A stretch of DNA of 64,000 bases, from assembly GCA_035362935.1 (NCBI GenBank), contig DAOSEC010000008.1, forward strand, positions 12,823 through 76,822. The letters are read 5' to 3'. Shown here in pieces: positions 27,300-59,242 of the stretch. Under the pieces are notes generated by a model. That model was not told the origin of the DNA, did no database searches, and saw only the letters and a program-made list of their open reading frames with translations. A program made the position numbers and the translations under genes. This stretch comes from Bacilli bacterium. Lineage in GTDB: Bacteria; Bacillota_I; Bacilli_A; ML615J-28; CAG-313. Position 1 is the first letter of the stretch; each line of letters starts with the position of its first letter.

Positions 27300-27572
27300 C
27301 TATGGTTTAATGACAAAGAAGTATATTGCAGCCCCGATTCCACCAATAATAGCTAGCGTAACAAAAAACTTAATGAACTTTTTAATAATGACAAAGATTC
27401 CTAATACACTTAACAACCCTGCAGCAATCACGATTGCGGCTTGGAGATACGGTGCTAAGTTATTGAAAAAAGGCATAATTAAATTCATTAATTGGGTTCC
27501 CCATTGGTTCAGAGTACTTTGAACGGTACCCCATAGTTCAGAAAATGAAAATAAAAATTGCATTGATTTCAC
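27300..27572 (-). CDS. small membrane protein (2 TM)
   Basis: 90 aa. It occupies the slot downstream of recR where yaaL/bofA sit in Bacillus. Identity not established. Confidence 0.45.
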   Translation of the reverse strand: MKSMQFLFSFSELWGTVQSTLNQWGTQLMNLIMPFFNNLAPYLQAAIVIAAGLLSVLGIFVIIKKFIKFFVTLAIIGGIGAAIYFFVIKP

Positions 27573-27578: not shown

Positions 27579-28178
27579 TTAAAATTCTTTGCGTCCTTCA
27601 ATTGCTTTTTTCAAAGTAATCTCATCCGCATAATCTATATCGCCACCTGCTGGTAGCCCGTAACCAATCCGCGTTATTAATAGGTGATCTTTCTTTAGGA
27701 TTTTAGCCAAATAGGAAGCAGTTGTGTCTCCTAATGCTGTTAAGCTGGTTGCTAAAATGATTTCTTCAATCGGGTCTTTTGTAATACGTTCTTCTAGTGT
27801 TTTGATATTAATATCATCTGGACCTATTCCATCTAGCGGAGAAATGACACCATACAACACATGATATACGCCATTATATTGTTTGGTTTCCTCTAATATT
27901 ATAACATTCTTTGCTGATTCTACAACCATTATTTTATTTTTATTACGAGTGATGTCTCTACATATCGAGCAAATTTCTTGTTCTGTTAGCATACCACATA
28001 TCTTACACTTACGAATTTTAGTGGTTGACTCTGCTAAAGCTACTTGAAAATCAACAACATCTTGACTGCTGAATTTATCTATTGTGAAAAACGCCATCCT
28101 GCTTGCCGTTTTTGGACCAACTCCTGGATACTTTTGAAATGCCTCTATTAATTTTTGAAGCGATTTTAAATCATTCAA
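27579..28178 (-). CDS. recR: recombination protein RecR
   Basis: 199 aa. HhH plus C4 zinc finger (CKICGMLTEQEICSIC) plus Toprim. Confidence 0.9.
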   Translation of the reverse strand: MNDLKSLQKLIEAFQKYPGVGPKTASRMAFFTIDKFSSQDVVDFQVALAESTTKIRKCKICGMLTEQEICSICRDITRNKNKIMVVESAKNVIILEETKQYNGVYHVLYGVISPLDGIGPDDINIKTLEERITKDPIEEIILATSLTALGDTTASYLAKILKKDHLLITRIGYGLPAGGDIDYADEITLKKAIEGRKEF

Positions 28179-28187: not shown

Positions 28188-28502
28188 CTAAAATAGATTT
28201 CCCATTCCGCCCAAGAATGATTGGAACTTCGCCATCTTAGTTTTGGTAAATTTATCGATCTCTGTATATGCTTGGCTGCATGCAGCGACAACCATTTCCC
28301 CCAACATTTCAAGATCTTCTGCTCCATCTACAGTAAAATCATCACTGACTTTAACGTTTTGTAATTGTTTGTTTCCAAGCATTTCAATTGTAACCACACC
28401 ACCAGCACTTGATGTGAATACCGTTTCTTCGATTTCTTTTTGTGTGCGCTCCATATCTTCTTGCATTTTTTTAAGTTGTCTTAACATAGCTTGTTGATTC
28501 AT
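28188..28502 (-). CDS. ybaB: nucleoid-associated protein YbaB/EbfC
   Basis: 104 aa. Conserved dnaX-ybaB-recR order. Confidence 0.9.
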   Translation of the reverse strand: MNQQAMLRQLKKMQEDMERTQKEIEETVFTSSAGGVVTIEMLGNKQLQNVKVSDDFTVDGAEDLEMLGEMVVAACSQAYTEIDKFTKTKMAKFQSFLGGMGNLF

Positions 28503-28515: not shown

Positions 28516-31398
28516 TTATTCTTCGATTTTAATTAGACCTTCTCCAAATAAGGATCTAGCCTTTTCTACTGTCTTATTTTTCTCAGTTGTTAGTGGAGAT
28601 TCTATCTCATCTGCTACTCTTAAATCTGGATTGTCAATTGGTTTTAATTTTGGGAATTTAACTCCCATATTGTATTGACCAACGTATTCGCTTCGTTTTT
28701 CTACCCATATATCATTTGGTAAGGCAATGTACGATAATGGTTTCCCTAGTTTTGTTTTAAAAATTAGGTTTGCCTCATCTTTCATTTTCTTACTCATAAC
28801 ATGATTGCACATACTAATGGATGGATAGGTTATAATAATGGAGTTAATCCCAATTGCTGAAACAGTTGCATTCATTAACAGTCGTGCAATGTTTTCAAGA
28901 GAAACGCTTATTCCTTTGTCAAGATTTCTCCACTCAGAAATAATACGACTACGTTCACTTTTTGCCTCATCCGATCTTGAGTCATGTAAAATTTGTTCTA
29001 TGTATGATACATCATACGGATCCTTGATTTCTTTTTCAACAACAGGTGGTTCAGCTTTGATCACTTCTTTTTCTTTGTGTGGTTCTGATGCACCAGATTT
29101 CCCAATGATAATCGGCTTTTCTTCACGAACTTGCTTTTCTGTCTTTGGTGATATCACTGTTGTTGGCACTTCTTTTATTGGTGCTGTTTTTTCGGGTTGT
29201 ATCTCTATAGGGATTTTCTGGGCTTCTTGCTTGTCTTGTTTTGAAATGTTTTCAAACATTGAAAGTGTGGATAGGTTTTCGTGTTCTACAATTTGTAGTT
29301 TTCCTTCTACTTCACTTAATTTACTTCCAAGTTTTTTTACAAATTCGCTCAATTGTGCAAGTTTTATATCAATCTTGTCTACAAACACTTGTTTTTCATC
29401 TACTTGGTCAAACTTAGCATTTATACTTACCAACATCTCTTTGATTGTTTGTTTTAATTCTTCAATTAAATTTAGCAAATCATTGTTTTCGGTCGTCCAT
29501 TTAAGATTGAGTTCGGCAATCATTTTTTCATTTTCGTCGATTGATAGATTCACTTTTTCGATTGACAACTTTAAGTTTTCGTCGCTTTGTGTCATTGACT
29601 CACTTAGTTCAGTCATCAGATTAAGCATTTTGGTGTGATCGTTTTCAATATGTTCGATTTTATCATATACCAAATCGAGATTGACTTCTTTTTCTAAGGA
29701 GAACAAATCGGGAGCATCTATACTTGTTTGATCTATCTTACTTGTCTTATCTGCTACTTGTGTCAAATCTATCGAATCAATCACTTGTTTTAATTCTTTG
29801 ATTTCCTTTTGAACTTTTTCATGTTGGTGCTTCAACTGCTTTTCAAGTGTGATTTTATCTTCTTCTAGTTGATTCACTTTTAGATATAAATCATCAAACT
29901 TGATTGTTGAGTTTTCCAAATCAAACACTGGTTTTTCTTCTTCGTCTAATGTGAATAATTCTTGACCGCTGTTTTTCAGTTGGTTTAGTTCCGTTCTTAT
30001 GTTTTCTATTTCTATTGAATAATCAATTACTGGTTCGTTATACTTTAAGTTGGCTAGTTGTTTTTTAATTTCATCTAGTTCAACTGAATAATCATGACCA
30101 CCTTGTTGTGAAATCATTTCGTTCGCATCTATTTTTTGCTTTAATTTTGGAAGTTCTAATTTTGTAATTTCACTGATGAGTTTATTTACTTTTGCATCAA
30201 TCATCTCAATTTTAGAATTATCCACAGTCCCATTTTCAACGTGATGAGATACTCCCTTCATATTGAGAAGACGTTCTTCGATTTGATGTATTTTATGTTG
30301 AATGTCTAGATCGTCATCGGTCATATTAATAATCTTCATAACACCAACTTCTAAATAGATTCTTGGGTTATTTGAGTATTTTAATTTGTTTTGAATATCC
30401 ATAATAACATCGATGTAAAAATATACTCGCTTTTTGTCAATCTTTGATGCTAACTTTTTAAATTCTGGATTATCAAATATATATTTAAAGACGGTTTGTC
30501 CTGTTGTATTTTGATATAGTAAGATATCTCTACAGAATTGAAGCAACCCTGAAACAAGACGGTTCACTTCTTTTCCAAGTTCTAAAATTTCATCCACAAT
30601 TTTTATTGCTTCTGCTACATTGGTTCCCTCAAAACTATTTACCAAATCAATTAACTTATAATTTGAGATGCGACCAGTCACGCTATTGACATCATCAATT
30701 GAAATGACATCATCACTATACGAAATCGATTGGTCTAAAATACTTAACGCATCGCGCATACCGCCTTCAGCTGTTTCAGCGATAGCATCAAGTGCATCTT
30801 CTTTCACTTTAATGGCTTCTCGTTTTGTCACTTCTTGTAATTTTATTTTAATTTCTTGACTAGATAGTGCCTTGAAATCAAATCGTTGGCATCTTGATAT
30901 GATTGTCATAGGTATCTTATGGGCTTCGGTGGTTGCTAAAATAAATATGACGTGTGCAGGCGGTTCCTCTAATGTTTTAAGCAACGCATTAAATGCAGAA
31001 GTTGATAACATATGTACTTCATCAATAATATATACTTTAAACTTAGAATTGGATGGTAGATAATTCACCTTTTCTAAGATTTGACGAATCTCTTCTACCC
31101 CATTGTTGCTTGCGGCATCGAGCTCAATGATATCTGTGGATTGGTTGTACATAATAGACAAACAACTAGCACATTGATTGCATGGTTCTTTGGTTGGAGC
31201 AGACGCACAATTGACCGCTTTCGCTAGAAGTCTGGCAATCGTTGTTTTTCCGATACCTCTTGGACCACTAAACAAATACGCATGGCTAATCTTATTTGCC
31301 TTGAGTGCGTTTTGTAATGTTTTTTTAATGTGGTTTTGTCCTGCTACTTCGGAAAACGTGGATGGTCTATATGTTCTATATAATGCTTTATATGCCAT
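28516..31398 (-). CDS. dnaX: DNA polymerase III subunit tau (DnaX), unusually long with internal coiled-coil insertion
   Basis: 960 aa. N-terminal AAA+ clamp-loader module (GPRGIGKTT, zinc-binding CNQCASC, SRC). About 350 aa of heptad-rich, K/E/L/N-rich sequence follows domain III. The C-terminal tau-specific domain is retained. Confidence 0.85.
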   Translation of the reverse strand: MAYKALYRTYRPSTFSEVAGQNHIKKTLQNALKANKISHAYLFSGPRGIGKTTIARLLAKAVNCASAPTKEPCNQCASCLSIMYNQSTDIIELDAASNNGVEEIRQILEKVNYLPSNSKFKVYIIDEVHMLSTSAFNALLKTLEEPPAHVIFILATTEAHKIPMTIISRCQRFDFKALSSQEIKIKLQEVTKREAIKVKEDALDAIAETAEGGMRDALSILDQSISYSDDVISIDDVNSVTGRISNYKLIDLVNSFEGTNVAEAIKIVDEILELGKEVNRLVSGLLQFCRDILLYQNTTGQTVFKYIFDNPEFKKLASKIDKKRVYFYIDVIMDIQNKLKYSNNPRIYLEVGVMKIINMTDDDLDIQHKIHQIEERLLNMKGVSHHVENGTVDNSKIEMIDAKVNKLISEITKLELPKLKQKIDANEMISQQGGHDYSVELDEIKKQLANLKYNEPVIDYSIEIENIRTELNQLKNSGQELFTLDEEEKPVFDLENSTIKFDDLYLKVNQLEEDKITLEKQLKHQHEKVQKEIKELKQVIDSIDLTQVADKTSKIDQTSIDAPDLFSLEKEVNLDLVYDKIEHIENDHTKMLNLMTELSESMTQSDENLKLSIEKVNLSIDENEKMIAELNLKWTTENNDLLNLIEELKQTIKEMLVSINAKFDQVDEKQVFVDKIDIKLAQLSEFVKKLGSKLSEVEGKLQIVEHENLSTLSMFENISKQDKQEAQKIPIEIQPEKTAPIKEVPTTVISPKTEKQVREEKPIIIGKSGASEPHKEKEVIKAEPPVVEKEIKDPYDVSYIEQILHDSRSDEAKSERSRIISEWRNLDKGISVSLENIARLLMNATVSAIGINSIIITYPSISMCNHVMSKKMKDEANLIFKTKLGKPLSYIALPNDIWVEKRSEYVGQYNMGVKFPKLKPIDNPDLRVADEIESPLTTEKNKTVEKARSLFGEGLIKIEE

Positions 31399-31453: not shown

Positions 31454-33301
31454 TCATAGCTTTCTTTGCTTTTGTATAGGTTTTTTCGAAAAGTTAGTGT
31501 GTTGTTGATGCGAACTCGGTGTAATTGGTCGAATTAAACAGTTTGGGCCATACCCAATTAAATCTTTACGATTTGCTTTCACAAGTGCATCATAAACAAG
31601 TTGATAATTTTTTGGATTTTTAAATTGCATCAAAGCTCGTTGCATTGCTTTTTCTTCCTTTGTGTCTGCAACATACACAGGTTCTAGGGTTCTTGGATCC
31701 ACTTTAGTGTAATACATACATGTTGCAAGTGTAGATGGAGTCGGATAGAAATCTTGTACCTGTTCGATGTATAGATTGTGTTTCTTGATGTATTCTGCAA
31801 GCATGATCGCATCCTTTAAAGTAGACCCCGGATGAGAACTCATCAAATATGGAACTAAGAATTGATTTTTATTGTGTTCTTTGTTGATTTTCTCATACTT
31901 TTGGACAAACGATTCATACAATTCAAAATTTGGTTTTTGCATATACTTCAAAACCTGATTGCTTACATGTTCTGGTGCGACTTTTAGTTGCCCCGAAATG
32001 TGGTGTTCCACAAGTTCGTGAAAAAACGTATCGTTTTTATCATACATCAAATAATCATATCGAATTCCGCTACGAATAAATACCTTTTTCACTTTATCTA
32101 ATTTACGAACTGCTCTTAATATATCTAAATAATTGTCATGACTCACTTTTAAGTTCTTACAACGAACCGGATGCAAACATTCTTTACCAATGCATGCTCC
32201 TTTTTGTAGTTGTTTATCACATGCTGGATCGTAAAAGTTTGCCGTTGGACCACCAATGTCGTGGATGTACCCTTTGAACTCTTTGTCATTGATGATTTTT
32301 TGTGCTTCTTCAACAACAGAATCTTTGCTTCTAGATTGCATGATTCTTCCTTGATGTTGTGTAATCGCACAAAAACTACAACTTCCATAGCATCCACGAT
32401 TCACCACTATGCTATGTCTAACTTCATCGATTGCAGGAATATGTTCTTTATAACTATAGTGATAATTTCGTTCATACGGAAGGCTATAAACCCAATCTAA
32501 GTATTCTTGATTGAGTGGTTCACTTGGTTTATTTTGAATAACATATATATCTTTGTATGGTTCTACTAATATTTTGCTTGTAAAGAAGTCATTATTTTGG
32601 TGTTGAATATAGAAACTTTTCGCATAATTTAACTTATCTGCTAATAATTCATCATAACTGGGTAGCATCACTTTGGAATTAGGCAAGAATGTTTCATTCT
32701 TTGATTTCCATACCGTACCTTTGATGAAATTCAAATCTTTGATGCTCATGCCAGTGTTTAAGTAGTCAGCAATCTCAACAATTGTCTTTTCGGCCATTCC
32801 ATAAACCAACAAATCAGCACTTGCATCAAGTAGAATCGATCTTCTTAAACTGTTTTGAATATAGTCATAATGAGCAAGCCTACGCAAACTCGATTCAATA
32901 CCACCAATAATAATCGCAGAATCAGAAAACAAGTTACGAACAATCTTACTATATGTAATGGTAGTTTTATCAGGGCGCTTCCCCATAACCCCACCTGGAG
33001 TATAATAATCTTTTTCACGTCTTCTTTTACTAGCTGTATAATGATTCACCATCGAATCTATGTTACCGGCTGTAATTAAAAATCCTAGCCTTGGTTTTCC
33101 AAATTGTTTAAATACGTTTGGATTATTGATGTCTGGTTGTGCAAGTATGGCTACTTTATAACCAAATGCTTCTAGTACTCGTGATATAATGGCTGCACCG
33201 AATGAGGGATGATCGATATAAGCATCCCCACTGATTAATATAAAATCAACAAAATCCCAGTTTCGGTTGATAAGATCTTGCTTACAAATTGGTAAAAACA
33301 T
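31454..33301 (-). CDS. ygiQ: YgiQ-family radical SAM protein (UPF0313)
   Basis: The ORF extends to 33478, but the start is taken at MFLPICKQD (33301). CxxxCxxC-type radical SAM cluster motif CYGSCSFC plus a YgiQ-type C-terminal region. Confidence 0.75.
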   Translation of the reverse strand: MFLPICKQDLINRNWDFVDFILISGDAYIDHPSFGAAIISRVLEAFGYKVAILAQPDINNPNVFKQFGKPRLGFLITAGNIDSMVNHYTASKRRREKDYYTPGGVMGKRPDKTTITYSKIVRNLFSDSAIIIGGIESSLRRLAHYDYIQNSLRRSILLDASADLLVYGMAEKTIVEIADYLNTGMSIKDLNFIKGTVWKSKNETFLPNSKVMLPSYDELLADKLNYAKSFYIQHQNNDFFTSKILVEPYKDIYVIQNKPSEPLNQEYLDWVYSLPYERNYHYSYKEHIPAIDEVRHSIVVNRGCYGSCSFCAITQHQGRIMQSRSKDSVVEEAQKIINDKEFKGYIHDIGGPTANFYDPACDKQLQKGACIGKECLHPVRCKNLKVSHDNYLDILRAVRKLDKVKKVFIRSGIRYDYLMYDKNDTFFHELVEHHISGQLKVAPEHVSNQVLKYMQKPNFELYESFVQKYEKINKEHNKNQFLVPYLMSSHPGSTLKDAIMLAEYIKKHNLYIEQVQDFYPTPSTLATCMYYTKVDPRTLEPVYVADTKEEKAMQRALMQFKNPKNYQLVYDALVKANRKDLIGYGPNCLIRPITPSSHQQHTNFSKKPIQKQRKL

Positions 33302-33476
33302 ATGACACCTCAATACAATGAATATAGTATCATAATCATTGGGTTTTTTCAATCTATTCATAGAAGTTTGATAGAGGCAAAACAAGTAAACGTTTTTAAT
33401 TGTGAATCTATCATTTACTTGATTCTTAATATCGTGTATAATTACGTTGGAATTTATGAACCTGTAGGAGGTATCC

Positions 33477-35141
33477 ATGGGGATCTTACTAACGACGATT
33501 GATGTACAAAAAATGATCTTTTATATTTTAGGTGGGTTGGGTATTTTCTTATACGGCCTTCATCTAATGGGAGAATCACTAAAAAATCTCGCTGGTGCTA
33601 AATTAAAAATACTTATTGAAAAAACAACTAACACCCCTTTAAAAGGAATTTTAATGGGGATTGCTATCACCGTATTAATTCAATCTTCCTCTGGAACAAC
33701 CGCATTAACCGTTGGATTAATTGGTGCAGGATTAATGACACTACCTCAAGCAATCGCTGTCATCATCGGTGCTAACATTGGTACAACTGTAACCTCATTC
33801 TTAATCGGCCTAAAAATCGCAAATTATGCACTCCCGATGATCGGGGTTGGAGCGTTTGCAATCTTCTTCTCAAAACGAAAAAAAATATCCTTAATGGGAA
33901 GCGCTTTGATGGGATTTGGAATGTTATTTTTTGGATTAGAAATGATGGGTCAACAGCTAAAGGTGTTGACAACAATGGATTTCTTTCAATCAACAATGAT
34001 TACATTATCAACCCACCCTATATTAGGAGTATTAGTGGGTACCACCTTAACTGCACTTGTTCAATCATCAAGCGCATCTATTGGTATTTTACAAGAACTA
34101 TACTCCACCGAAACGATTCCTCTGATTGCTGCAGTACCAATTCTTCTTGGATCAAACATCGGTACAACCATAACTGCAATTCTTGCATCCATGGGTTCTT
34201 CCAAAGATGCAAAACGATCCGCTCTTGCCCATGTGTATTTTAATACCATAGGTACTTTAGCCTTCTTATTGTTCTTAAAACCATATACACAACTGTTCAT
34301 TTGGATTGAACGTAACTATTTAGAGGCGGGAGACAAATTAACCATTGCCTTTGCACATATGGGGTTTAACATTATAACAACCATTATTATGTTTTTCTTG
34401 ATTAAATACCTTGTTTTAATAGTAGAAAAATCAATACCAAAATCACCGTCTGAAACATTTGTTGTATCGGTCGATCAGTTGAATCATAATTTAATTCAAT
34501 CTGCTCCAATCCTTGCATTAGAAAATGTCAAAAAAGTGATTTCTGATATGGGATGCTCGGTGCTTAAGATGTTTAAGATTACCAAAGATTATATCAATGC
34601 AGATGTTCATAAGTATTTCGAAGATATTACTATTCTTGAAAACATTACAGATACCTACGATAATAAGTGTCACGATTATCTTGTAAAATTAAGTGGTCAA
34701 TCTTTATCAAAGGAAGAACAACATTTGCAATCCATTTGTTTTGATACTATTCGTGATTTTGAACGTATCGCAGACCATTGTTTAAACATTGCACAATTCA
34801 TGAATGACCGCTATGAAAATAAGGTCGTCGTTAATAAAGATGTGTTAGAAGATTTAAACACCATGGTTGATTCATTATCCGATATGCTTGTTGATGCAAT
34901 CACAGCTTTCCAAGAATTTGACAAACGAAAAGCAGAGTTTGTTTTAGAAAAAGAACCACTCATTGATATGATGGAGAAGAAGTATCGAAAAGCACATTTA
35001 AAACTCGTTAGTGATGGTGTCATTAGCACAGTAGATTTACACTTTGTTGATATCTTAGCGAATCTCGAACGAATCGGAGATCACGCAGAAAACATCGCAG
35101 AGAATGTATTAAACGAAAGCATTCACGACATAGAAGACTAA
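33477..35141 (+). CDS. Na+/phosphate cotransporter (NptA family) with C-terminal PhoU-like domains
   Basis: 554 aa. Duplicated QSSS(G/A)T motifs in the transmembrane part. The C-terminal soluble region is PhoU-like. Confidence 0.8.
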   Translation: MGILLTTIDVQKMIFYILGGLGIFLYGLHLMGESLKNLAGAKLKILIEKTTNTPLKGILMGIAITVLIQSSSGTTALTVGLIGAGLMTLPQAIAVIIGANIGTTVTSFLIGLKIANYALPMIGVGAFAIFFSKRKKISLMGSALMGFGMLFFGLEMMGQQLKVLTTMDFFQSTMITLSTHPILGVLVGTTLTALVQSSSASIGILQELYSTETIPLIAAVPILLGSNIGTTITAILASMGSSKDAKRSALAHVYFNTIGTLAFLLFLKPYTQLFIWIERNYLEAGDKLTIAFAHMGFNIITTIIMFFLIKYLVLIVEKSIPKSPSETFVVSVDQLNHNLIQSAPILALENVKKVISDMGCSVLKMFKITKDYINADVHKYFEDITILENITDTYDNKCHDYLVKLSGQSLSKEEQHLQSICFDTIRDFERIADHCLNIAQFMNDRYENKVVVNKDVLEDLNTMVDSLSDMLVDAITAFQEFDKRKAEFVLEKEPLIDMMEKKYRKAHLKLVSDGVISTVDLHFVDILANLERIGDHAENIAENVLNESIHDIED

Positions 35142-43301: not shown

Positions 43302-44684
43302 TTAAAATTCACAATTTTTTGGAGTTCTTGCATAAGGGATGACATCGCGAATGTTTTCAACTCCGGTGACATACATAATGAGGCGTTCAAATCCTAAACC
43401 AAACCCTGCATGTTTACATCCACCATATCTTCTTAGATCTAAATACCAATACATATCTTCTGGTGAGATGTGGAATTCTTTCATACGGTCAATCAACACA
43501 TCAAGACGTTCTTCTCTTTGGGATCCACCGACCAACTCTCCTGCTCCAGGAACAAGTAAGTCCATCGCTGCTACTGTTTTTTGGTCGTCGTTTAATCTCA
43601 TATAAAATGCCTTGATTTCTTTTGGCCAATTGATCACAAACACAGGGGATTTAAAATGAACGTCCGTTAAATACTTTTCGTGCTCTGTTGCTAAGTCCTC
43701 ACCCATTTTCGGTTCATTCTCAAACTTCACTTTTGATTGTTGTAAGATTTTAATCGCATCAGCATATTCACATTTTGTAACCTTTGATTGAATCAAGTCT
43801 TCTAATTGTTTGAGTTTTCCAGGACTTACAAACTTATCAAAAAACTCCATCTCTTCTTTGGCGTTATTTAATATATATGTAACGACATATTTGACCATGT
43901 CTTCGGCAAGTTGCATGTCATCGTTTAAATCCGCAAAACTTATTTCTGGTTCGATCATCCAAAACTCAGACGCATGTCTTGTTGTGTTTGAGTTTTCTGC
44001 ACGAAATGTTGGGCCAAACGTATACACATTTTTAAATGCTAGCGCAAATGTTTCTGCTTCTAGTTGACCAGATACCGTGAGGTTTGTCATTTTTCCAAAG
44101 AAATCTTTTGAATAATCCACTTCACCACTTTTCGCAATTCGCTCTAAATCAAGTGTGGTAACTTGGAACATTTGTCCTGCCCCTTCAGCATCGCTTGCTG
44201 TAATGATTGGTGCGTGAACATATATGAACTCTCTTTTATTAAAAAATTCATGAATCGCAAATGCCAATAAACTACGAACACGGAACACTGCACTAAATAA
44301 ATTTGTTCTTGGTCTTAAATGAGCCTTTTCTCTTAAAAACTCTCGCGAATGTTTTTTTGGTTGAATCGGATAATCTTCCGGACTATCTCCTTCTAAAACG
44401 ATTTTTGTTGCGTGAAGTTCTACTGGTTGTTTCATGTGTGGAGTTGCTTTGACAACTCCTTGCACTGTGATGCTTGCACCTACTCTAAACTTTCTAATTT
44501 CTTCAAAGTTTTCTACCTTTGTATCGTAGACAATCTGAAGATTTTCAAAGAATGATCCATCGTTTAAATTGATGAAACCGAATTCTTTTTGATCGCGATT
44601 GGTTCGAATCCACCCTTGTACTGTGACATGTTGCCCATCAAGACCACTTGGTGTTCTGAATAATTGTTTTACATTTACTAACAT
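43302..44684 (-). CDS. asnS: asparagine--tRNA ligase
   Basis: 460 aa. Class II aaRS with an N-terminal OB anticodon-binding domain and a catalytic core (…[12 protein letters not shown]…). Confidence 0.85.
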
Positions 44685-44697: not shown

Positions 44698-44946
44698 TAA
44701 AGAAAAAGTCCTTAGAGTTCACTCTAAGGACGAAAATTCGCGGTACCACCTTAGTTCACAAATGTCTTTGTGCACTTTCATCTTTGTTAACGCTAAAGTA
44801 GCGGTTAGTTCTACTAATTCATTTGGAAATGAAGGTTCTTCTAACGACTCCAGACTGTTCTTCAATAAACCATATATCCCAAGTTCTCACTATCCTTAGG
44901 TCACTTTACCATAGCGGATTTATTTACTCATGTCCTTCAAAGTCTT
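44698..44946 (-). ncRNA. T-box riboswitch leader of asnS
   Basis: On the minus strand the T-box motif is AACUAAGGUGGUACCGCGAA (revcomp of 44737-44756). Immediately after it comes the terminator GUCCUUAGAG-UGAAC-CUCUAAGGAC plus UUUUUCUUU. AAC triplets are present in the putative specifier region. Confidence 0.75.
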
Positions 44947-44953
44947 TGGTAAG

Positions 44954-48417: not shown

Positions 48418-49776
48418 CTACTTTCCTAAGCAAAATTTTGTAAATAGTTCGTCAAGCAACGAATCGCTTTTTGTATCGCCAATGATTTCTCCTAAGGATA
48501 ACCAAGCGGCATACAAATCGATGTTGATAATATCAACAGGCATTTCTTGATCAATCGATGCGAGTGCATCTTGAAGCGATTTTCTCGCTTCTTTTAATTT
48601 TGTGATATGACGAACATTACTGATGTAAGTTGCGTCAGATGCATTAAACTCATTGATTTTTGTGTATTGCTTTATTTTGTTTTCTAATTGATAAATATCT
48701 TCAATTTTATTTGCTGATATCAAAATATATTCAGGCAAATTCGATAAATCAATTTTTGATTTTAAATCCACTTTGTTCACAATGACAATTCGTTTTTTGT
48801 GTTTGGATAATTCTAACAATTCATAATCCATATCTGTTAACGGACTAGAATTATCAAGAACCAAGAAAATAATTTCTGCTTCTTCAATTGCTTTTTTACT
48901 GCGTGAAACACCAATCGATTCAACGACATCTTCTGTCTTGCGAATCCCAGCAGTATCAATTAAGTTGAGTACAACTCCACCTATGTTGATACTTCCTTCA
49001 ATTGTATCTCTTGTAGTTCCTTCTATGTCAGTAACAATGGCTCGGTTCTCTCTTAACATAGCATTTAATAAACTACTCTTCCCAACATTTGGTCTTCCGA
49101 TAATTGCTGTTTTGATTCCTTCTCTAATAATTCTTGATGTATTTGCTTTCTCAAGAATGACATTCATTTTATTGATTTGTGTTACAACAATTGGACGAAT
49201 TAATTCGTTTGTCATAACAACTGCGTCATCATATTCTGGATAATCAATGTTTACTTCAATGCTTGCTATTGATGTTAATATATCTTGTCGAAACGACTCA
49301 ATTAATTGCTTGACATCACCTAGCAAACCTTGATTTGCGAGTGACAAAGCATTCTCGTTTTGAGCCTCAATCACATCCATGACAGCCTCTGCTTGAGTCA
49401 AATCAATTCTTCCATTTAAATATGCACGCTTTGTAAATTCACCAGGTTCTGCCATGCGTGCTCCATGTATCAATGAAAGTTCCAAAATCTTATTTGTTAC
49501 ATAGATTCCACCGTGACAATTGATTTCAACAATATCTTCTTTTGTGAATGTTTTTGGAGACCGAAAGATTGAAACCAAGACCTCATCGACAATTTGCCCA
49601 TTTTCTGAATTTACGATATGGCCATAACTTATTGTGTGACTTTTTGCTTTTGCCAAATCTTTTCCTTTAAACATTTTTTTCACAATGGAAATTGCATCGT
49701 TTCCACTTAATCTAACAATGGAAATTGCGCCTTTTCCAAGTGCGGTTGAGATCGAAACTATTGTATCATCGAACAT
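48418..49776 (-). CDS. mnmE: tRNA modification GTPase MnmE
   Basis: 452 aa. G1-G4 GTPase motifs (GRPNVGKSS, DTAG, NKVD) and a C-terminal CxGK. Confidence 0.9.
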   Translation of the reverse strand: MFDDTIVSISTALGKGAISIVRLSGNDAISIVKKMFKGKDLAKAKSHTISYGHIVNSENGQIVDEVLVSIFRSPKTFTKEDIVEINCHGGIYVTNKILELSLIHGARMAEPGEFTKRAYLNGRIDLTQAEAVMDVIEAQNENALSLANQGLLGDVKQLIESFRQDILTSIASIEVNIDYPEYDDAVVMTNELIRPIVVTQINKMNVILEKANTSRIIREGIKTAIIGRPNVGKSSLLNAMLRENRAIVTDIEGTTRDTIEGSINIGGVVLNLIDTAGIRKTEDVVESIGVSRSKKAIEEAEIIFLVLDNSSPLTDMDYELLELSKHKKRIVIVNKVDLKSKIDLSNLPEYILISANKIEDIYQLENKIKQYTKINEFNASDATYISNVRHITKLKEARKSLQDALASIDQEMPVDIINIDLYAAWLSLGEIIGDTKSDSLLDELFTKFCLGK

Positions 49777-50489
49777 TATGATCTCCTAACCCATGGGTCA
49801 TCCTCATCATCTTCTTCGGCTTGTTTTGTTTTATTTTTTGATGGTTGATCTTTCCATGGATCTGATTCTTTTTCTACATCAACAACTTCTACCCATGATT
49901 TCATACTTTCAATTTCTGCGAGTTTGTGTTGGATCATATCAAACGAGGATGGCACGACTCTTGTGCTCGCAATCTTATCGTGAAATCCCATTCCTTCTTT
50001 TGAAACAAGCGTAGTGATTAACACAACAATTTGTATGATGGATGTAATAAATCCGATGATATAACTTGAAGCAATAAATGCAATCATACCTTCACTATTG
50101 TTAACGTCTTTTGGCAAATAAAACAATATGAATCCGCTAATCAAAGCCATCCATAATGTAAAATTTCTTATCACGTGTTGATAAAATTTCACTGGTTCAT
50201 ACTCTTTGTTTAATACTTTTAGATGAAATACTTTTTTGAATATTGTTTGACCTTTCATCAATTGTGGAATCACACTAAAGTAAAGAAATGCGAATACAAT
50301 ATTCGAAATTAAGATTGGAAGTGTTACTACCCCAAGAATGGTGTTCTCATCCACATTTGAAAGATCTCCATTTTGAAATATTTGCAGAAGTGAAAAAGCT
50401 CCACCCACAATTGTCGCAATTAAACTATAAACAAGATTGTCAATGATTGCAGCTACTAGCCGTTCTCCTCTAATATCCTTCAGGTTCAT
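49776..50489 (-). CDS. RDD-family membrane protein with acidic C-terminal tail
   Basis: 237 aa. RLVAAIID…-type RDD signature and 3 TM helices. Confidence 0.55.
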   Translation of the reverse strand: MNLKDIRGERLVAAIIDNLVYSLIATIVGGAFSLLQIFQNGDLSNVDENTILGVVTLPILISNIVFAFLYFSVIPQLMKGQTIFKKVFHLKVLNKEYEPVKFYQHVIRNFTLWMALISGFILFYLPKDVNNSEGMIAFIASSYIIGFITSIIQIVVLITTLVSKEGMGFHDKIASTRVVPSSFDMIQHKLAEIESMKSWVEVVDVEKESDPWKDQPSKNKTKQAEEDDEDDPWVRRS

Positions 50490-51720: not shown

Positions 51721-51729
51721 CTTATCCTC

Positions 51730-52536: not shown

Positions 52537-52683
52537 AATCGTCCTCCAAACACATCCTCAATATCTCTTTTTTTAAATCTATTGTGATTATATCAAATTA
52601 TTCTCCTTTTTAAAATAAAAATCATAACTAAATTCTGCTGCTAAAAAACAAAAACACGATTGTGCATCGTGTTTCTTGGTTTG

Positions 52684-53301: not shown

Positions 53302-53311
53302 AAAACCATCC

Positions 53312-54712
53312 TTATTTATGTTTCGCCATTAATTTTAACATTCTTTGATCGCTAAACTTTTGACCAATGTATGTTTGTGCAGCAGAATAAATATTACCTA
53401 TTAACCAGTAGAACCCCAAACCTGCTGGACTTTGTAATACAAACACAGCCATCATGAGTGTCATAAAGTACATCATCATTTGTGTTTGTTTTTGAATGTT
53501 TTGTGTTTGTTCTGTTTGTTTTTTTCTATAGTCAGGAACATCACTTTGTGCTTCGTTTCTTAGTTTCTTCTGACGTTTCATCATTAACCATTGCATTAAT
53601 AATTGAGTCGCAACAACTAATAGTGCTAAAATCCAAATACCAATTTTTTGTGCAGTATCTGTTTGGCCTAAGAATAAATCCACTCCTAAAACTTTTGTTA
53701 AAAAGTTTCCATTTGAACTCCAAGTGTCTGGTGCTCTTCGAATGACATTATAAATACTTAAGAAGATTGGCATTTGTAAAAACGGTAATAAACATCCACC
53801 AATTCCAACTTTATACTTTTTGTATAGTTGTAAGGTTTCCATTTGCATCATGCGTTGTGATTCTGGATCTTGTCTTCCGGCATATTTTTCTTGTAACTTC
53901 GCTTGTTCTGGCTGCATGATTTGCATCTTTAATGTCATGTCGTTTGTTTTGGCATAAATCGGCCATGCCAATGTACGAATAATGATTGTGGTAAAAATAA
54001 TACCTATTGCGTATAATCCACCAAACAAATCTGAAATAAATTTAAGCATCATCCCAACCGGATAAACAAAGAATTTATCGAAGAATCCCCCGTCAAAAAC
54101 AATTGGTGTTAAGTTTGGTAACACTTCTTCTGTAAAGCGAAAATCGTCAAGATAGAACGTTCCTGTTTCTGATGCATCCGTTGTTTCGTATCCAATTGCA
54201 AAACCAGTTAAGTCACTTGCCTTTTTTCCTGCTTCAACATCTGTAATTTTAACGTGTACGTATCCACCATATGATTTGACTTCAGAAACATCGACTTCTT
54301 TTACTGCTTCCCCATCGCTCCACACTAATTTAACTAATAGGTTTTCAATGGTTCCTTTGTACCAAAACGAAAAATAAATATGTTGATTTGTAATATCTTC
54401 AATATTAATTGTGCTTGAAACAAATTCAGTACCAACTCCATTTGATCCATAAGTAAAAGCAAGACCTTTTCCTTGTCTAACTCCACCTTCTTGTGTGAAT
54501 GAAATGGAAGTACCATCTTGTGTAACATTGTCAAACAAATGTTGAAAGTCGCTTCGAATTTCTTCGGATGAGTTGTACTCGTACAACGAGTTAATTTCGA
54601 GTGGTTTTGTTTTAGGGACTGCTTGTGTACTACATCCAGAAAGAATGGTAGTCAGCCCTAAGAATAACACAAGGATCAAGAAATATTTGATTCGTGTTTT
54701 ATGTGTTTTCAT
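53312..54712 (-). CDS. yidC: membrane protein insertase YidC (lipoprotein form) with ~200-aa N-terminal extracytoplasmic extension
   Basis: 466 aa. Lipobox LSGC. The C-terminal ~260 aa are the YidC/Oxa1 core. The N-terminal extension is beta-rich (…FYLDDFRF…). Confidence 0.8.
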   Translation of the reverse strand: MKTHKTRIKYFLILVLFLGLTTILSGCSTQAVPKTKPLEINSLYEYNSSEEIRSDFQHLFDNVTQDGTSISFTQEGGVRQGKGLAFTYGSNGVGTEFVSSTINIEDITNQHIYFSFWYKGTIENLLVKLVWSDGEAVKEVDVSEVKSYGGYVHVKITDVEAGKKASDLTGFAIGYETTDASETGTFYLDDFRFTEEVLPNLTPIVFDGGFFDKFFVYPVGMMLKFISDLFGGLYAIGIIFTTIIIRTLAWPIYAKTNDMTLKMQIMQPEQAKLQEKYAGRQDPESQRMMQMETLQLYKKYKVGIGGCLLPFLQMPIFLSIYNVIRRAPDTWSSNGNFLTKVLGVDLFLGQTDTAQKIGIWILALLVVATQLLMQWLMMKRQKKLRNEAQSDVPDYRKKQTEQTQNIQKQTQMMMYFMTLMMAVFVLQSPAGLGFYWLIGNIYSAAQTYIGQKFSDQRMLKLMAKHK

Positions 54713-55087: not shown

Positions 55088-55189
55088 GTGTATCACCCAA
55101 AATAAAAACCTCTTGCTTGCAACTAAATTTGACAAACAAGAGGTCCAAGAAAATGTTTATTAAGTTTTTCTTTTTTTGCTTTAATAAAA

Positions 55190-56573: not shown

Positions 56574-57980
56574 ATGAGGTCAGGAAAAGAGTTGTGGGAT
56601 TTAGTAAAAAATCAGTTAAAGTTAGAGATGGCTTCGACAGATTTTTCTGAAATTTTCGATCCAATAACTGAAATACATAAAATACACAACAAATATATTT
56701 TTTTAATTGTTCCAGATATTTTAACAAAATTTCGTATTGAAAAATTCTATTTGGATACAATGAATAAGTTATTAGTGCAAATTGAAGAAGATAAACACAA
56801 CTTTAAATTAATAACAAGAGAAGTCGCTGACAAAGAAAACTCAGACAACCAAAAGCTTGGTTTAACAAGTGTGGACTCAGTAGACAGACAAGTCAGTAAA
56901 CGAAACCTAAGGAGTGAGTATACATTCGACAATTTTGTTACCGGTGAGTCGAACCGTTTTGCATGGATGAATGCAATCAAGGTTGCAGAGAGCCCTCATG
57001 TAACAGTCAATCCTCTTTACATCTTTGGGGATGTTGGTCTAGGGAAAACACATTTGATGATGGCAATTGGACACTACATATTAGATAACAACATCCACGC
57101 TAACGTTGTTTATACTACCGCTCAACAATTTGCTGAAGATTACTTTTTAGCAACCAACAAAAAAAACATTAACGATATTGAGAAGTTTTACAATTATCAT
57201 CGAGCAGCTGATATTTTACTAGTTGATGATATTCAATTTTTAAGTGGCAAGAACTCTACACAAGAAGAATTCTTTAAAGTGTTTGAACATTTATTTGAAA
57301 CAAACAAGCAAATTGTTATTACATCAGATAGAGCAGCAAGTGATTTAGAGAATATGATGGCAAGACTTAAGTCAAGGTTTGCATGGGGAATGCTCGTAGA
57401 TATTAAAAGCCCCGATCTAAACCTAAGAATATCTATCTTGAAAAGAAAATTAGCATTCTTGATTCCAAATCCAATAGATGTTCCTAATAATGTATTGGAG
57501 TTTATTGCAACAACATTTGATCAAAATGTAAGAGATTTAGAAGGTGCTTTAAGAAGATTTGTGTCTTTTTGTGTTTCGTTTAATTTGCCTTTTACATTAG
57601 AAAGTGCAAAGCAATCATTAGAAGGAATCACACCTAAAAACAAATTGGATTCATTTGTAACAAACGATACCAATATTGATAAAATAAAACAAACAGTTGC
57701 ATCTTATTATAAAATAACTGTTTCTGACTTAGAATCAACAAGTAGAAAACAACACATAACATATCCAAGACAAGTTGCGATATATTTGATTCGGTCACGC
57801 TATGACATTCCTCTAAAAAAGATTGGTGAGTTTTTTGGAAACAGAGATCATGCTACAATATCACACTCTTATGATAAAATTATTAACGATATTAATTCGA
57901 ATTTACAAATCAAAAATGACATTAACATTATAGAGTCTAAAATCGAGGAAAGTTTAAAGAAAAAAGAAAAAAATAATTAA
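56574..57980 (+). CDS. dnaA: chromosomal replication initiator DnaA
   Basis: 468 aa. AAA+ (GDVGLGKTHL) and a C-terminal DnaA-box binding domain. Confidence 0.95.
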   Translation: MRSGKELWDLVKNQLKLEMASTDFSEIFDPITEIHKIHNKYIFLIVPDILTKFRIEKFYLDTMNKLLVQIEEDKHNFKLITREVADKENSDNQKLGLTSVDSVDRQVSKRNLRSEYTFDNFVTGESNRFAWMNAIKVAESPHVTVNPLYIFGDVGLGKTHLMMAIGHYILDNNIHANVVYTTAQQFAEDYFLATNKKNINDIEKFYNYHRAADILLVDDIQFLSGKNSTQEEFFKVFEHLFETNKQIVITSDRAASDLENMMARLKSRFAWGMLVDIKSPDLNLRISILKRKLAFLIPNPIDVPNNVLEFIATTFDQNVRDLEGALRRFVSFCVSFNLPFTLESAKQSLEGITPKNKLDSFVTNDTNIDKIKQTVASYYKITVSDLESTSRKQHITYPRQVAIYLIRSRYDIPLKKIGEFFGNRDHATISHSYDKIINDINSNLQIKNDINIIESKIEESLKKKEKNN

Positions 57981-58117: not shown

Positions 58118-59242
58118 ATGAAATTTACTATTAATCGAGATTTATTACTTTCAGAATTAAATCATGTGTCGAAAGGGTTGTCTACAAAAACTCCTATGCC
58201 AATACTAACTGGTATAAAAATTGCTGTAGAAATGGATGGATTAACGCTAACAACCTCAAACACTGAAATATCCATTCAAGTTAAGATTCCAAAGTCACAA
58301 TACCTAACTATAGAAGAAGTTGGTGAGTGTGTTGTTCCTGGTAAATACTTTTTAGAGATTATTCGTAAGATTGATGCTAGAGACGTTGACTTCGCAATTT
58401 TCGAAGAAAATATGATTAAGATTCTTGCAGACAGGTCAAACTTTACATTGATTGGATTAGATAAGGATGATTATCCATTGATTAATTTTAACGATTCTTC
58501 TGAAAATGTTGTTCTTGATGGAAACACTTTAAAACAAATAATCAAACAAACTTCATTTGCTACAGGTGTTAGTGAAACTAGAATTATACTAACAGGGATT
58601 TCGTTTGTAATAAATGAAAATCGCCTGACCGCAACTGCAACAGATAGTTTTAGATTGGCGAAAAAAACAATTAAGTTACCTAAAAATTATGAGAAAATTA
58701 GCGTTGTTGTTCCTTCAAAAGCATTAGATGATTTGAATAAAATCATCGATGATGCAGACGAAAAAGTTTATGTTCACCTTATGAATAATAAAGTTTTATT
58801 TAAATATAAAAACATTTCATTCCTAACTCGACTTATTGAAGGTACTTACCCAGACACATCAAGTTTAATTCCAAAAGAATTCTTTACAGATTTGAAATTT
58901 AATAAGCAAGAGCTTATTTCAGCGATTGATCGTGCAGCTTTATTCACTGTGTTGGATGCTGCAAACATAGTTAAATTGACTTTAAAGAGCGATAAAGTGG
59001 TCGAAATTGCTTCTAATTCTAACGAAATCGGAAAAGTCGTAGAAGAAGTTTATCCAACAGAGTGTAGTGTGTTAAAACCGTTCCAAATCGCGTTTAGTTC
59101 AAAATACTTCTTAGATGCTATAAAATCGTTCGATTCAAATGAAATTACAATCCATTTTACAGGAGAAATTAAACCTTTTGTTGTAAGTGGAGAATATGAT
59201 CCAAATTTAACCCAATTAATCCTTCCAGTAAGGGTTTCATAG
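58118..59242 (+). CDS. dnaN: DNA polymerase III beta sliding clamp
   Basis: 374 aa with the three-domain beta-clamp pattern. Follows dnaA. Confidence 0.9.
   Translation: MKFTINRDLLLSELNHVSKGLSTKTPMPILTGIKIAVEMDGLTLTTSNTEISIQVKIPKSQYLTIEEVGECVVPGKYFLEIIRKIDARDVDFAIFEENMIKILADRSNFTLIGLDKDDYPLINFNDSSENVVLDGNTLKQIIKQTSFATGVSETRIILTGISFVINENRLTATATDSFRLAKKTIKLPKNYEKISVVVPSKALDDLNKIIDDADEKVYVHLMNNKVLFKYKNISFLTRLIEGTYPDTSSLIPKEFFTDLKFNKQELISAIDRAALFTVLDAANIVKLTLKSDKVVEIASNSNEIGKVVEEVYPTECSVLKPFQIAFSSKYFLDAIKSFDSNEITIHFTGEIKPFVVSGEYDPNLTQLILPVRVS

Follow-up and report, generated by a model that had tools for sequence, protein, structure and literature searches.

The tau subunit of DNA polymerase III, encoded by dnaX, organizes the bacterial replisome as its hub, and the linker of tau determines how far the polymerases, the helicase and the clamp loader can shift against one another. 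The clamp loader holds three DnaX protomers, and in model bacteria the C-terminal domain of DnaX is the part that binds the polymerase. The tether of E. coli tau is short, basic and mostly unstructured, and E. coli also makes a gamma form of the protein by frameshift. Indeed, every tau studied to date has, to our knowledge, a short flexible tether. The DnaX proteins of the PRK14949 and PRK07764 type have long linkers that are Pro/Ala/Gln-rich and of low complexity. NCBIfam has DnaX models of 800-1000 positions (984 in PRK14949), and DnaX proteins, such as these of Proteobacteria and Actinobacteria, are known to differ in length through the region that separates domain III from the C-terminal domain. 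We know of no description of long heptad helices, of a subclade-conserved distal helix or of LF/MF motifs in B. subtilis DnaX, nor of any earlier case of a bacterial tau tether with its own clamp-docking motif. A literature search likewise found no paper on a tau linker that is a coiled coil or bears clamp motifs.

The DnaX of B. subtilis is made as tau only and functions in a DnaX3-HolA-HolB clamp loader. Its partners include the helicase and PolC (PMC13220808, PMC11470591). The window analyzed here, a stretch of 64,000 nucleotides from a Bacilli bacterium, encodes a DnaX that shares with the B. subtilis type the AAA+ module, the zinc module, the collar and, judged by phmmer matches, the kind of C-terminal domain, as well as the dnaX-ybaB-recR operon and a short heptad helix after the collar. 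The difference lies in the linker, which measures 432 aa in the window protein and 25-141 aa in ordinary relatives. The layout of the window protein follows the logic of E. coli tau, with a clamp-loader core, a variable tether (which contacts the helicase in E. coli) and a putative polymerase-binding domain at the C-terminus. However, its tether consists of about 350 helical residues followed by an 80-residue disordered tail, the gamma frameshift site is absent, and sequence searches detect no similarity in either the linker or domain V. The long DnaX proteins of the PRK14949 type are also different, in that the window protein scores 329 bits against this model (cutoff 1016) and has a heptad-patterned linker that is poor in Pro and Gly.

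The gene and its two conserved modules

The dnaX gene (28516..31398, (-) strand) is a single ATG-initiated ORF of 960 aa plus stop. Its product is 100% identical to NCBI HOI46772.1, "DNA polymerase III subunit gamma/tau [Bacilli bacterium]", and begins with the sequence MAYKALYR, which is kept in all homologs. The best NCBIfam equivalog is PRK05563, at 555.3 bits against a cutoff of 400, and TIGR02397 is matched at 467.6 bits against a cutoff of 250. Directly downstream lies ybaB/ebfC (28188..28502, (-)), which encodes a nucleoid-associated protein of 104 aa (PF02575, 76 bits), and the classic operon order dnaX-ybaB-recR is completed by recR (27579..28178, (-)), whose 199-aa product contains the RecR HhH, zinc finger, Toprim_4 and RecR_C domains. 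Because dnaA and dnaN are about 25 kb away in the same window (dnaN at 58118..59242), the dnaX region belongs to the core chromosome.

The AAA+ clamp-loader module, domains I-III, takes up residues 1-360 (30319..31398, (-)) and is recognized both by Pfam and by invariant motifs. DNA_pol3_delta2 (PF13177) covers residues 20-178, the ATPase lid (PF22608) residues 183-229, and gamma/tau domain III (PF12169) residues 233-359. The invariant columns in the homologs include the P-loop GPRGIGKT, the zinc ligands C64, C73, C76 and C79, the DEVH of the DExx box, and S168-R169-C170, the SRC of the arginine finger; all AAA+ clamp-loader hallmarks are present in the window protein. The collar, domain III, is all-helical in the AF2 model, with pLDDT of 78-89 apart from a loop block at residues 301-310 (68). 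Nearly all homologs have a module of the same 360-aa length, and the exceptions are annotated N-terminal extensions.

At the other end of the protein, residues 793-960 (28519..29022, (-)) form an alpha/beta domain that phmmer identifies as the counterpart of the C-terminal domain, putatively of the domain V type, in ordinary DnaX. These 168 residues match the C-termini of DnaX proteins of 530-670 aa at 15-50 bits, the domain measures 164-170 aa across all homologs, and its AF2 model has a pLDDT of 86 and a pTM of 0.74. Foldseek returned only weak, non-significant fold matches (E of at least 0.08), the top six of which include E. coli tau domain V (5fku_E and 2aya, E 0.3-0.5), DciA and DnaA domain I. 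A PDB sequence search with the window protein found no match for the C-terminal domain or the linker. The position of the domain, its homology to DnaX C-termini and the non-significant fold matches suggest that it corresponds to domain V of E. coli tau. Judged by its sequence, the ORF is a bona fide, intact DnaX/tau clamp-loader subunit; on this point Pfam, NCBIfam and phmmer agree with the first-pass annotation, which had described a tau with intact clamp-loader and C-terminal modules.

An E. coli-type gamma/tau frameshift was considered and ruled out, because no suitable site lies shortly after domain III. Codons 360 to 640 of the window dnaX contain no slippery heptamer in frame; heptamers occur only at codons 643, 688 and 916, and the one at codon 688 is not kept in relatives, which encode KR or RR at this place. 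Given the lack of a heptamer and the precedent of B. subtilis, which makes full-length DnaX only (PMC13220808), no gamma-type truncated product is expected here.

The linker and its segments

The extra stretch between the two modules comprises residues 361-792 (nt 29023-30318), or 432 aa, and the window DnaX exceeds the usual length by about 400 residues because the tether between its two ends has expanded. The helical part spans residues 361-711 (nt 29266-30318), which matches the roughly 350 extra in-frame residues placed by the first-pass annotation at "roughly 29,250-30,300 nt". The Lys/Glu/Leu/Asn/Ile-rich composition that it had noted is also borne out, since L (12.6%), E (12.6%), K (12.4%), I (9.1%) and N (6.8%) are all high in residues 361-700, along with D (9.1%); Pro and Gly together make up 3.2% of these residues.

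The AF2 monomer model contains about seven linker helices (residues 366-380, 392-413, 416-430, 437-452, 461-480, 494-554 and 574-711), separated by low-confidence loops and followed by a disordered Pro/Glu/Lys segment of about 80 residues (712-792). The two longest helices have 138 residues (574-711) and 61 residues (494-554). The pLDDT is 54-86 per 10-residue block, reaching 72-86 over residues 621-700, and falls below 50 at 479-498, 550-573 and 704-739. The earlier proposal of a heptad coiled coil is thus right as to helicity and heptad pattern but not as to continuity.

The hydrophobic periodicity of helix 574-711 has its maximum at 3.5 residues (z +4.8), and in the linker the z of the 7/3 harmonic is +3.7 to +4.4, with values of +4.0 to +4.4 in residues 431-620. 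No heptad periodicity (7/2 or 7/3) was found in the N- and C-terminal domains. Periodicity over the whole linker is modest (z 1.2-3.7), and Fourier analysis of whole linkers across homologs gives a weak signal (mean z ~1), since helices that are out of register with one another cancel; windowed scoring was therefore used instead. An in-house heptad score flags 37% of the residues of the window linker, versus 4% in shuffles, and 99 of 103 non-redundant long linkers score above their own shuffles (median 25% vs 3%). In these 103 linkers, position a is occupied by I (25%), L (22%), V (15%) and N (9%), position d by L (38%), I (20%) and V (10%), position e by E (23%) and K (20%), and position g by K (21%) and E (17%). 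The scoring scheme weights a and d alike, and so the asymmetry between them is not built in. The long helices, the heptad periodicity beyond composition and the a/d residue pattern predict a linker of the coiled-coil type, and the monomer model and sequence pattern make a supercoiled assembly of several helices a candidate arrangement.

The proximal helical module, residues 361-430 (30109..30318, (-); AF2 helices 366-380, 392-413 and 416-430), is conserved clade-wide, with a mean BLOSUM score of 1.17 versus ~0 in the remaining linker. Helix 366-380 also occurs in short-linker DnaX, where one post-collar heptad helix is kept. The next segment, residues 431-620 (29539..30108, (-)), is a fast-evolving heptad helical region with indels, defined by the AF2 model and the 7/3 harmonic and including helix 494-554. 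Residues 426-562 are only 14-31% identical in relatives whose N-terminal module is 89-96% identical. Near the start of this region, residues 436-475 (29974..30093, (-)) contain a 23-aa helical unit in two degenerate tandem copies, DYSVELDEIKKQLANLK (residues 436-452) and DYSIEIENIRTELNQLK (residues 459-475). The corresponding direct repeat, D1, is 40 nt long with 73% identity and a spacing of 69 nt (23 aa), and its window score of 47 compares with shuffled maxima of 33.6 +/- 3.5. The earlier statement that the insert has no repeats at the DNA level is therefore nearly correct, but for this one degenerate 69-nt duplication. Internal repeats were also considered as the origin of the entire linker and rejected, because this 23-aa duplication was the single significant one found; a BLASTP self-comparison of the linker was empty off the diagonal.

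Three short motifs lie in low-confidence breaks. The first, GQELFTLDEEE (residues 478-488; 29935..29967, (-)), falls in a gap between helices with pLDDT <50 and is common to relatives P0002 and P0003 only. The second, PDLFSLEKE (residues 563-571; 29686..29712, (-)), occupies the gap between the two long helices, again with pLDDT <50; the subclade of the window protein keeps L565, F566, L568 and E569 without exception, and the short-linker relatives P0166 and P0172 have the similar motifs DLDLFSL and FDLFEEE. The third, (Q/L)STLSMFENISK (residues 706-720; 29239..29283, (-)), lies where the pLDDT is <50 from residue 704. This last segment is 93/100/73/60% identical within the subclade, in which S710, T711, L712, M714, F715 and E716 are invariant. 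It is preceded by the distal part of the 138-residue helix, residues 621-705 (29284..29538, (-)), which has canonical 3-4 hydrophobic spacing according to the AF2 model and periodicity; here the identity in the subclade is 78/76/69/51%, versus 81/78/74/68% for the C-terminal domain. Residues 621-720 as a whole are 51-100% identical in the subclade, and the adjoining linker 11-35%. The final segment, residues 721-792 (29023..29238, (-)), is by AF2 and composition a disordered tether rich in Pro, Glu, Lys, Ile and Val (E 17.8, K 14.4, I 12.2 and P 10.0% in residues 701-790), with no predicted secondary structure, a pLDDT of 31-38 and 11-35% identity in the subclade. Over most of its length the linker lacks conservation and has many indels, which is compatible with a mere spacer too.

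Distribution of the long linker

A local phmmer search with the linker alone recovers relatives P0001-P0005, the immediate subclade, at 143-874 bits, and beyond the subclade gives faint matches of 20-33 bits via the proximal module. Pfam finds no domain in residues 361-792, a UEV match at E 0.022 being taken as noise. Derivation of the linker from another protein was rejected on these grounds.

The best 120 matches to the window DnaX are all 772-1190 aa long, and in an exhaustive search the best 51 representatives at 50% identity have 785-1173 aa, after which length falls sharply to 500-670 aa. Relatives down to ~38% identity, with 772-1303 aa, have the same N-linker-C order, which excludes the scenario that the first-pass annotation had named as its refutation, namely short relatives beside a frameshift fusion in this genome. 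The long linker occurs in all 41 GTDB species loci found (complete DnaX ORFs of 782-1303 aa) and in about 55 of the best 150 clusters at 50% identity. The supposed genome-specific insertion is in fact a clade-wide linker expansion, and because the whole clade of uncultured Bacilli has it, it is a real lineage-wide variant and not a one-off oddity. The expectation that the usual tau is shorter holds for ordinary relatives, and the suggested comparison with relatives finds the long linker throughout this clade, outgroup DnaX having 500-670 aa. All carriers that have a name are MAGs of uncultured Bacilli, Acholeplasmatales or "Mollicutes", and the clade as a whole comes from gut, rumen and digester. 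No cultured carrier was found: when the protein of an Acholeplasmatales MAG served as the query of a further homolog search, all names obtained were MAG-derived.

Within the long clade the linker ranges from 245 to 665 aa in one set of homologs and up to ~780 aa elsewhere, and the N- and C-terminal modules are constant in length; helical heptad character is kept across the clade, whereas most of the linker sequence and length is not. Linkers of the short-linker outgroups (DnaX of 530-670 aa) are 25-141 aa long, and no member of the long clade falls below 245 aa, arguing that linker length is maintained. Since the C-terminal domain is homologous to that of 530-670-aa DnaX, and since it is the linker and not the flanking modules that varies in length, these sequence comparisons identify the long linker as an expansion of the naturally variable tau linker, rather than a foreign insertion or a fusion.

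Candidate docking motifs and possible roles

The motifs of the linker invite comparison with the QL[SD]LF class of clamp-binding motifs. Sister subclades carry perfect versions in the linker (QIVLF, QLSFF and QMSLF), the second of which is the clamp motif of B. subtilis MutS, while the window protein has the degenerate DLFSLE, TLSMF and QELFTL, which fail the strict pattern. Indeed, strict Q[LIMV]x[LFM]F is not found in the window linker, and the relaxed pattern alone is matched, by LSMF at residues 712-715, a core that resembles the clamp-binding core L[SD]LF. The LF/MF motifs of the window protein are in low-pLDDT, flexible gaps and are conserved over their flanks within the subclade. Among the 103 long linkers, 34 contain Q[LIMV]x[LFM]F exactly once; shuffled linkers give 1.5 +/- 1.2 and the reversed pattern gives 0. 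The pentapeptide is preceded by a Lys/Arg patch. It is near-universal in Acholeplasmatales-like clusters (56/64, 11/11 and 3/3) and essentially absent from the large CAG:324-like cluster (1/28). Long linkers give 0 matches to the hexapeptide form of the clamp motif, Q[LIM]x[LF]x[LF], versus 4.4 expected. Because the window protein is without the strict pentapeptide, as is essentially all of the CAG:324-like cluster, clamp docking is not the general purpose of the expansion. The putative motifs of the sister subclades would nonetheless be the first known clamp-docking motifs on a bacterial tau tether.

The reading that we prefer, and to which we give an even chance, is that the gene encodes a single functional tau whose linker has been expanded into a coiled-coil-type stalk carrying candidate docking motifs. 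The linker, equivalent to the domain IV tether, would have lengthened by a factor of about five to ten in the ancestor shared by this clade of uncultured Bacilli. Because three linkers exit the collar side by side, their heptad helices most likely pair, bundle or fold back. The result would be a semi-rigid stalk of tens of nanometres that keeps the C-terminal domains away from the clamp loader, with the disordered end segment contributing the rest of the flexibility. Candidate docking sites for replisome partners would be offered by the conserved islands and by the LF/MF motifs in the helix breaks; by analogy with the sister subclades the beta clamp is the leading candidate, with the replicative helicase as the alternative. 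An altered replisome geometry can reasonably be inferred from the predicted helix lengths (the 138-residue helix alone would measure ~20 nm). The clade maintains a predicted helical heptad arm of 250-780 residues with conserved islands, and if this arm forms a stalk, the replisome geometry of these Bacilli would be very different.

A more specific version, which seems unlikely, is that the three tau linkers form a defined coiled-coil stalk that also bears clamp-docking motifs and serves as a holder for beta clamps (spare or recycled) or for a different partner. The motifs would then be the canonical QxxLF of the Acholeplasmatales-like subclades and the degenerate DLFSLE/TLSMF of the window protein. 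If true, such a clamp-holding rigid arm would be a replisome architecture undescribed in bacteria, loosely like the C-terminal PIP box of the archaeal RFC large subunit, which is likewise a short hydrophobic motif in a flexible part of a clamp loader.

The linker might instead be a neutral or entropic spacer without partners, arising where AT-rich coding sequence with many Lys and Glu codons underwent slippage and duplication, and tolerated because any flexible tether suffices, with helicity as a by-product of composition. This would fit the spread of linker lengths among relatives (245 to ~780 aa), the 11-53% identity of residues 431-620 and 721-792 in relatives with an 89-96% identical N-terminal module, the recent 23-aa tandem duplication, and the restriction of linker-only homology to the immediate subclade. 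It does not account for the floor of 245 aa in the long clade (versus 25-141 aa in outgroups), for a heptad phase and a/d asymmetry above the composition expectation, or for the conservation of residues 361-430 clade-wide and of 621-720 at the level of the C-terminal domain in the subclade, and we consider it improbable. Were it correct, the arm would be a lineage-specific length variant, which annotators should not call a fusion or an error.

It is rather more doubtful that the linker is an enlarged helicase-binding platform, that is, a counterpart of domain IVa of E. coli tau that binds the DnaB-type helicase (Bacillus DnaC) instead of an inter-tau stalk. Binding alone does not call for 350 residues in a heptad pattern, and neither Pfam nor the PDB sequence search detects similarity to characterized helicase-binding segments. 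In favor of this reading, the linker has the same position as domain IVa, after domain III and before the C-terminal domain, the islands 361-430 and 621-705 could form an interface, and B. subtilis DnaX does bind helicase as well as PolC (PMC13220808, PMC11470591). The helicase-platform and stalk readings are mutually compatible.

The first-pass annotation had also raised the possibility that the coiled coil fastens the replisome to another structure, such as the membrane or the cytoskeleton-like filaments found in cells without a wall. Long coiled coils often act as tethers, and some MAGs of the clade bear the label Mollicutes or Acholeplasmatales. However, no evidence supporting this proposal emerged: on inspection the linker has no long hydrophobic or amphipathic segment of the membrane type, it has no Pfam domain, and the far end of the arm is a normal tau C-terminal domain rather than an anchoring module, all of which makes an anchor very improbable. 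Finally, an artefact (mis-assembly, a frameshift-fused neighbor, or a mobile or intein-like insertion) can be dismissed with near certainty, as the first-pass annotation had held for mis-assembly, because the gene is one uninterrupted ORF without intein or transposase domains, the N-linker-C architecture recurs in 41 species with a normal C-terminal domain after the extra segment, base composition is even along the whole gene, and the identical 960-aa protein is found on several independent contigs and assemblies.

The dnaX gene and its expanded linker

The dnaX gene (28516..31398, - strand) is a single open reading frame with an ATG start, 960 codons and a stop, and its product is DnaX (tau). 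Pfam recognizes DNA_pol3_delta2 (residues 20-178), the clamp-loader lid (183-229) and gamma/tau domain III (233-359), and the protein passes the NCBIfam equivalogs PRK05563 (555 bits vs a cutoff of 400) and TIGR02397 (468 bits vs a cutoff of 250). The database protein HOI46772.1, named 'DNA polymerase III subunit gamma/tau [Bacilli bacterium]', is identical to the product. Codons 360 to 640 contain no slippery heptamer, and the A AAA AAA at codon 688 is not kept in relatives; a gamma-type product is therefore not expected.

The classic dnaX-ybaB-recR arrangement is present, with a YbaB/EbfC gene (28188..28502, -) immediately downstream and recR (27579..28178, -) following on the same strand. 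Directly upstream lies a YgiQ-type radical SAM reading frame (31454-33478, -), listed as 674 aa; its Radical_SAM_N domain begins at residue 61, and the true start is probably an internal Met. A strongly hydrophobic 90-aa ORF with a GTG start just downstream of recR (27300-27572, -) has no Pfam match and may be a small membrane protein. The 266-aa, Ser/Phe/Ile/Leu-rich ORF antisense to the dnaX linker (28838-29638, +) is almost certainly not a gene but a shadow ORF to which the Lys/Glu-rich codons of the coding strand give rise.

When the window protein was aligned with 23 and then 51 homologs, two near-constant modules, the N-terminal 360 aa and the C-terminal 164-170 aa, were found to flank a linker that varies from 245 to 665 aa and measures 432 aa (residues 361-792) in the window protein. 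An AlphaFold2 model based on a 52-sequence alignment (mean pLDDT 71.9) shows a confident clamp-loader module, a series of predicted linker helices (366-380, 392-413, 416-430, 437-452, 461-480, 494-554 and 574-711) parted by low-confidence breaks, a stretch without predicted structure (712-796, pLDDT 31-38), and a confident alpha/beta domain at residues 797-951; the C domain modelled alone reaches pLDDT 86 and pTM 0.74. Leu, Glu, Lys, Asp, Ile and Asn abound in the helical part of the linker, where Pro plus Gly make up 3.2%, and the final 90 residues are rich in Glu, Lys, Ile and Pro. The expanded linker is made of heptad-patterned helices; its character is conserved, its sequence only in part, and it leads through a disordered tether to a normal C domain.

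The first-pass annotation had described the extra segment as a coiled-coil insertion of about 350 residues. In phmmer searches, the C domain finds the C-termini of ordinary 530-670-aa DnaX proteins (15-50 bits), in which 25-141 residues separate domain III from the C-terminal domain. These short linkers contain one heptad-like helix right after the collar (e.g. INKLEQRIKELEQKIKTLQ) followed by Glu/Lys/Pro/Val-rich sequence, and the 366-380 helix and 721-792 tether of the window protein are the counterparts of these two elements. The extra segment is thus the native tau tether in expanded form. It is neither a foreign element nor a fused gene, and it contains no Pfam domain, intein or transposase signature. 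A degenerate 23-aa tandem duplication (residues 436-452 / 459-475) scores 47, compared with shuffled maxima of 33.6 ± 3.5, and is also seen in the DNA (40 nt, 73% identity, spacing 69 nt), which hints at linker growth by local duplication. The duplication is the sole real exception to the earlier statement that the segment has no repeats at the DNA level, which is thus nearly but not fully correct.

Distribution of the long linker

The best 120 matches in a 5.8-billion-protein collection are all 772-1190 aa long. Among 1.84 billion 50%-identity representatives searched exhaustively with phmmer, the best 51 proteins are 785-1173 aa; beyond them, at 42-48% identity, lengths drop sharply to 500-670 aa, apart from four more long proteins lower down. 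A third search, which started from an Acholeplasmatales MAG protein, again gave MAG-derived names only, with lengths of 772-1141 aa. A GTDB scan using the C-domain alignment as query, with one genome per species, returned 41 loci in MAGs labelled Bacilli, Mollicutes, Acholeplasmatales/Acholeplasmataceae, 'Staphylococcus sp. CAG:324', 'uncultured Staphylococcaceae', Bacillales UBA, Tenericutes, Bacillota and 'uncultured Coprobacillus sp.'. The dnaX frames at these loci are 782-1303 aa in all but one (L023), where a 454-aa frame without an N-terminus is probably interrupted. No member of the long-linker clade found in these searches has a linker below 245 aa. A sizeable clade of uncultured bacteria therefore shares and maintains the long linker. 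The extra segment first noticed in this genome is real, and it represents a lineage-wide linker expansion instead of a unique insertion or a peculiarity of one genome; the tau subunit with a coiled-coil-type arm is a lineage-wide variant. No published description of such a coiled-coil-type tau linker was found.

The longest DnaX proteins (1169-1303 aa, with linkers of 647-780 aa) form one subclade, comprising the GTDB loci L001 (2566-6501) and L002 and the homologs P0096, P0101, P0112 and P0124. Their linkers carry (E)LTLFDF motifs and repeated EELFP(E/V) units, and they stand at the extreme of the same expansion trend.

Heptad pattern, motifs and constraint along the arm

The coiled-coil character was assessed by three independent tests, with home-made heptad scoring. 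In a Fourier analysis of hydrophobic positions, the strongest periods of the 138-residue helix lie at 3.4-3.5 residues (z +3.8 and +4.8). The 7/3 harmonic, typical of a/d spacing, stands at z +4.0 to +4.4 in the other helices and at z +3.7 when the linker is taken as a whole; both signals are absent from the N and C domains. The windowed heptad score marks 37% of the linker residues of the window protein compared with 4% in shuffles, and it exceeds that of their own shuffles in 99 of the 103 non-redundant long linkers (median 25% vs 3%). Residue preferences are classical, with Ile/Leu/Val and 9% Asn at a, 38% Leu at d, and Glu/Lys at e and g, and they emerged although the register scheme scores a and d identically. 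The initial description of the linker as heptad-patterned is borne out by all three tests. As modelled, the linker is a chain of helices with breaks and not a single continuous rod; the 138-residue helix, if extended, would span about 20 nm at 1.5 Å per residue.

Phe is scarce in the long linkers and, where present, tends toward short LF/MF motifs. The window protein has three, all in low-pLDDT gaps: GQELFTLDEEE (residues 478-488) and PDLFSLEKE (563-571) between helices, and STLSMFENI (710-718), the last two being invariant across the subclade. The Acholeplasmatales-like subclades have exactly one Q[LIMV]x[LFM]F pentapeptide per linker (e.g. QIVLF, QLSFF, QMSLF, QIGLF), with a Lys/Arg patch before it and acidic residues after it, as in KKPKxKxNEGQIVLFGDE, EGQLSFFS and EGQMSLFD. 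The pattern occurs in 34/103 non-redundant long linkers, where shuffling gives 1.5 ± 1.2 and reversing the pattern gives 0; carriers include the homologs P0066, P0073, P0089, P0092 and P0094 and the GTDB loci L006, L012, L014, L021, L026, L028, L035 and L037. When representatives are clustered by their N and C domains, it is near-universal in three clusters (56/64, 11/11 and 3/3) and essentially absent from a CAG:324-like cluster (1/28), cluster 6 (0/11) and the window's own cluster (0/3). The beta-clamp-binding consensus is QL[SD]LF, and at the sequence level the pentapeptide pattern matches it. The motifs of the window protein fit this pattern only in relaxed form, through an LSMF core, and are therefore not classed as clamp-binding. 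In short-linker relatives, DLDLFSL and FDLFEEE immediately precede the C domain, so the ancestor of this part of the DnaX tree may already have had an acidic LF motif. In the alignment, the five homologs named as carriers share a second conserved motif further along the linker, xSQLVRK(L/I)N (PNSQLVRKLN, ENSQLVRRLN, PQSRLVRKIN).

In the Bacillus-type replisome the clamp loader is DnaX3-HolA-HolB, with DnaX bridging the helicase and PolC (PMC13220808). For three linkers leaving the collar together, the most plausible arrangement would be a stalk formed by pairing or bundling, in which the conserved proximal (361-430) and distal (621-720) segments would serve for assembly or for binding partners. 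Docking of the clamp, by analogy with the sister clades, or else of the helicase, would fall to the LF/MF motifs in the breaks; a rival reading takes the arm as a pure helicase-binding platform. The variant would gain in significance if the arm is a defined stalk, and likewise if the sliding clamp is bound by the LF motifs and by the canonical clamp motifs that sister clades carry.

Another rival reading takes the arm as a neutral spacer. In comparison with 47 distant homologs, conservation is clear for residues 361-430 (mean BLOSUM 1.17), and 431-792 score about zero. Within the window protein's own subclade, P0002, P0003, P0004 and P0005 are 61-73% identical to it overall. In that order, identity is 96, 96, 96 and 89% in the N module (1-360), 28, 31, 15 and 14% in the variable helical region (426-562), 78, 76, 69 and 51% in the distal helix (621-705), 93, 100, 73 and 60% in (Q/L)STLSMFENISK (706-720), 33, 35, 24 and 11% in the tether (721-792), and 81, 78, 74 and 68% in the C domain (793-960). 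Part of the arm is thus constrained comparably to a folded domain, which argues against a purely neutral spacer. The earlier suggestion of a membrane or cytoskeleton tether is unsupported, since no feature favouring it was found. An artefact is excluded. Several independent contigs, up to 249 kb long, carry identical or near-identical copies of the 960-aa protein, which rules out mis-assembly.

The origin region and other features of the window

The window contains mnmE (48418..49776, -), yidC (53312..54712, -), dnaA (56574..57980, +) and dnaN (58118..59242, +), and the GC skew changes sign near 56 kb; dnaX therefore lies in the core chromosome, about 25 kb from the origin. GC content falls to 0.30-0.32 across 56-62 kb, and the intervals 54713-58117 and 48418-59242 are the chromosomal origin region.

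YidC is 466 aa, much longer than the usual 260-280 aa or so of Firmicutes; it has a lipoprotein-type signal (LSGC), and an extra N-terminal domain of about 190 residues, presumably extracytoplasmic, precedes the 60KD_IMP domain (residues 234-450). Two large, possibly surface-associated proteins are encoded at 18780-21557 (-) and 44989-48405 (-); one, of 925 aa, has an atrophied bacterial Ig domain and a lamin-tail domain, and the other, of 1138 aa, a GHL10 glycosyl-hydrolase-like domain. A T-box leader (44723-44949, -; 113.9 bits, above the gathering score) lies upstream of a 460-aa ORF (43302..44684).
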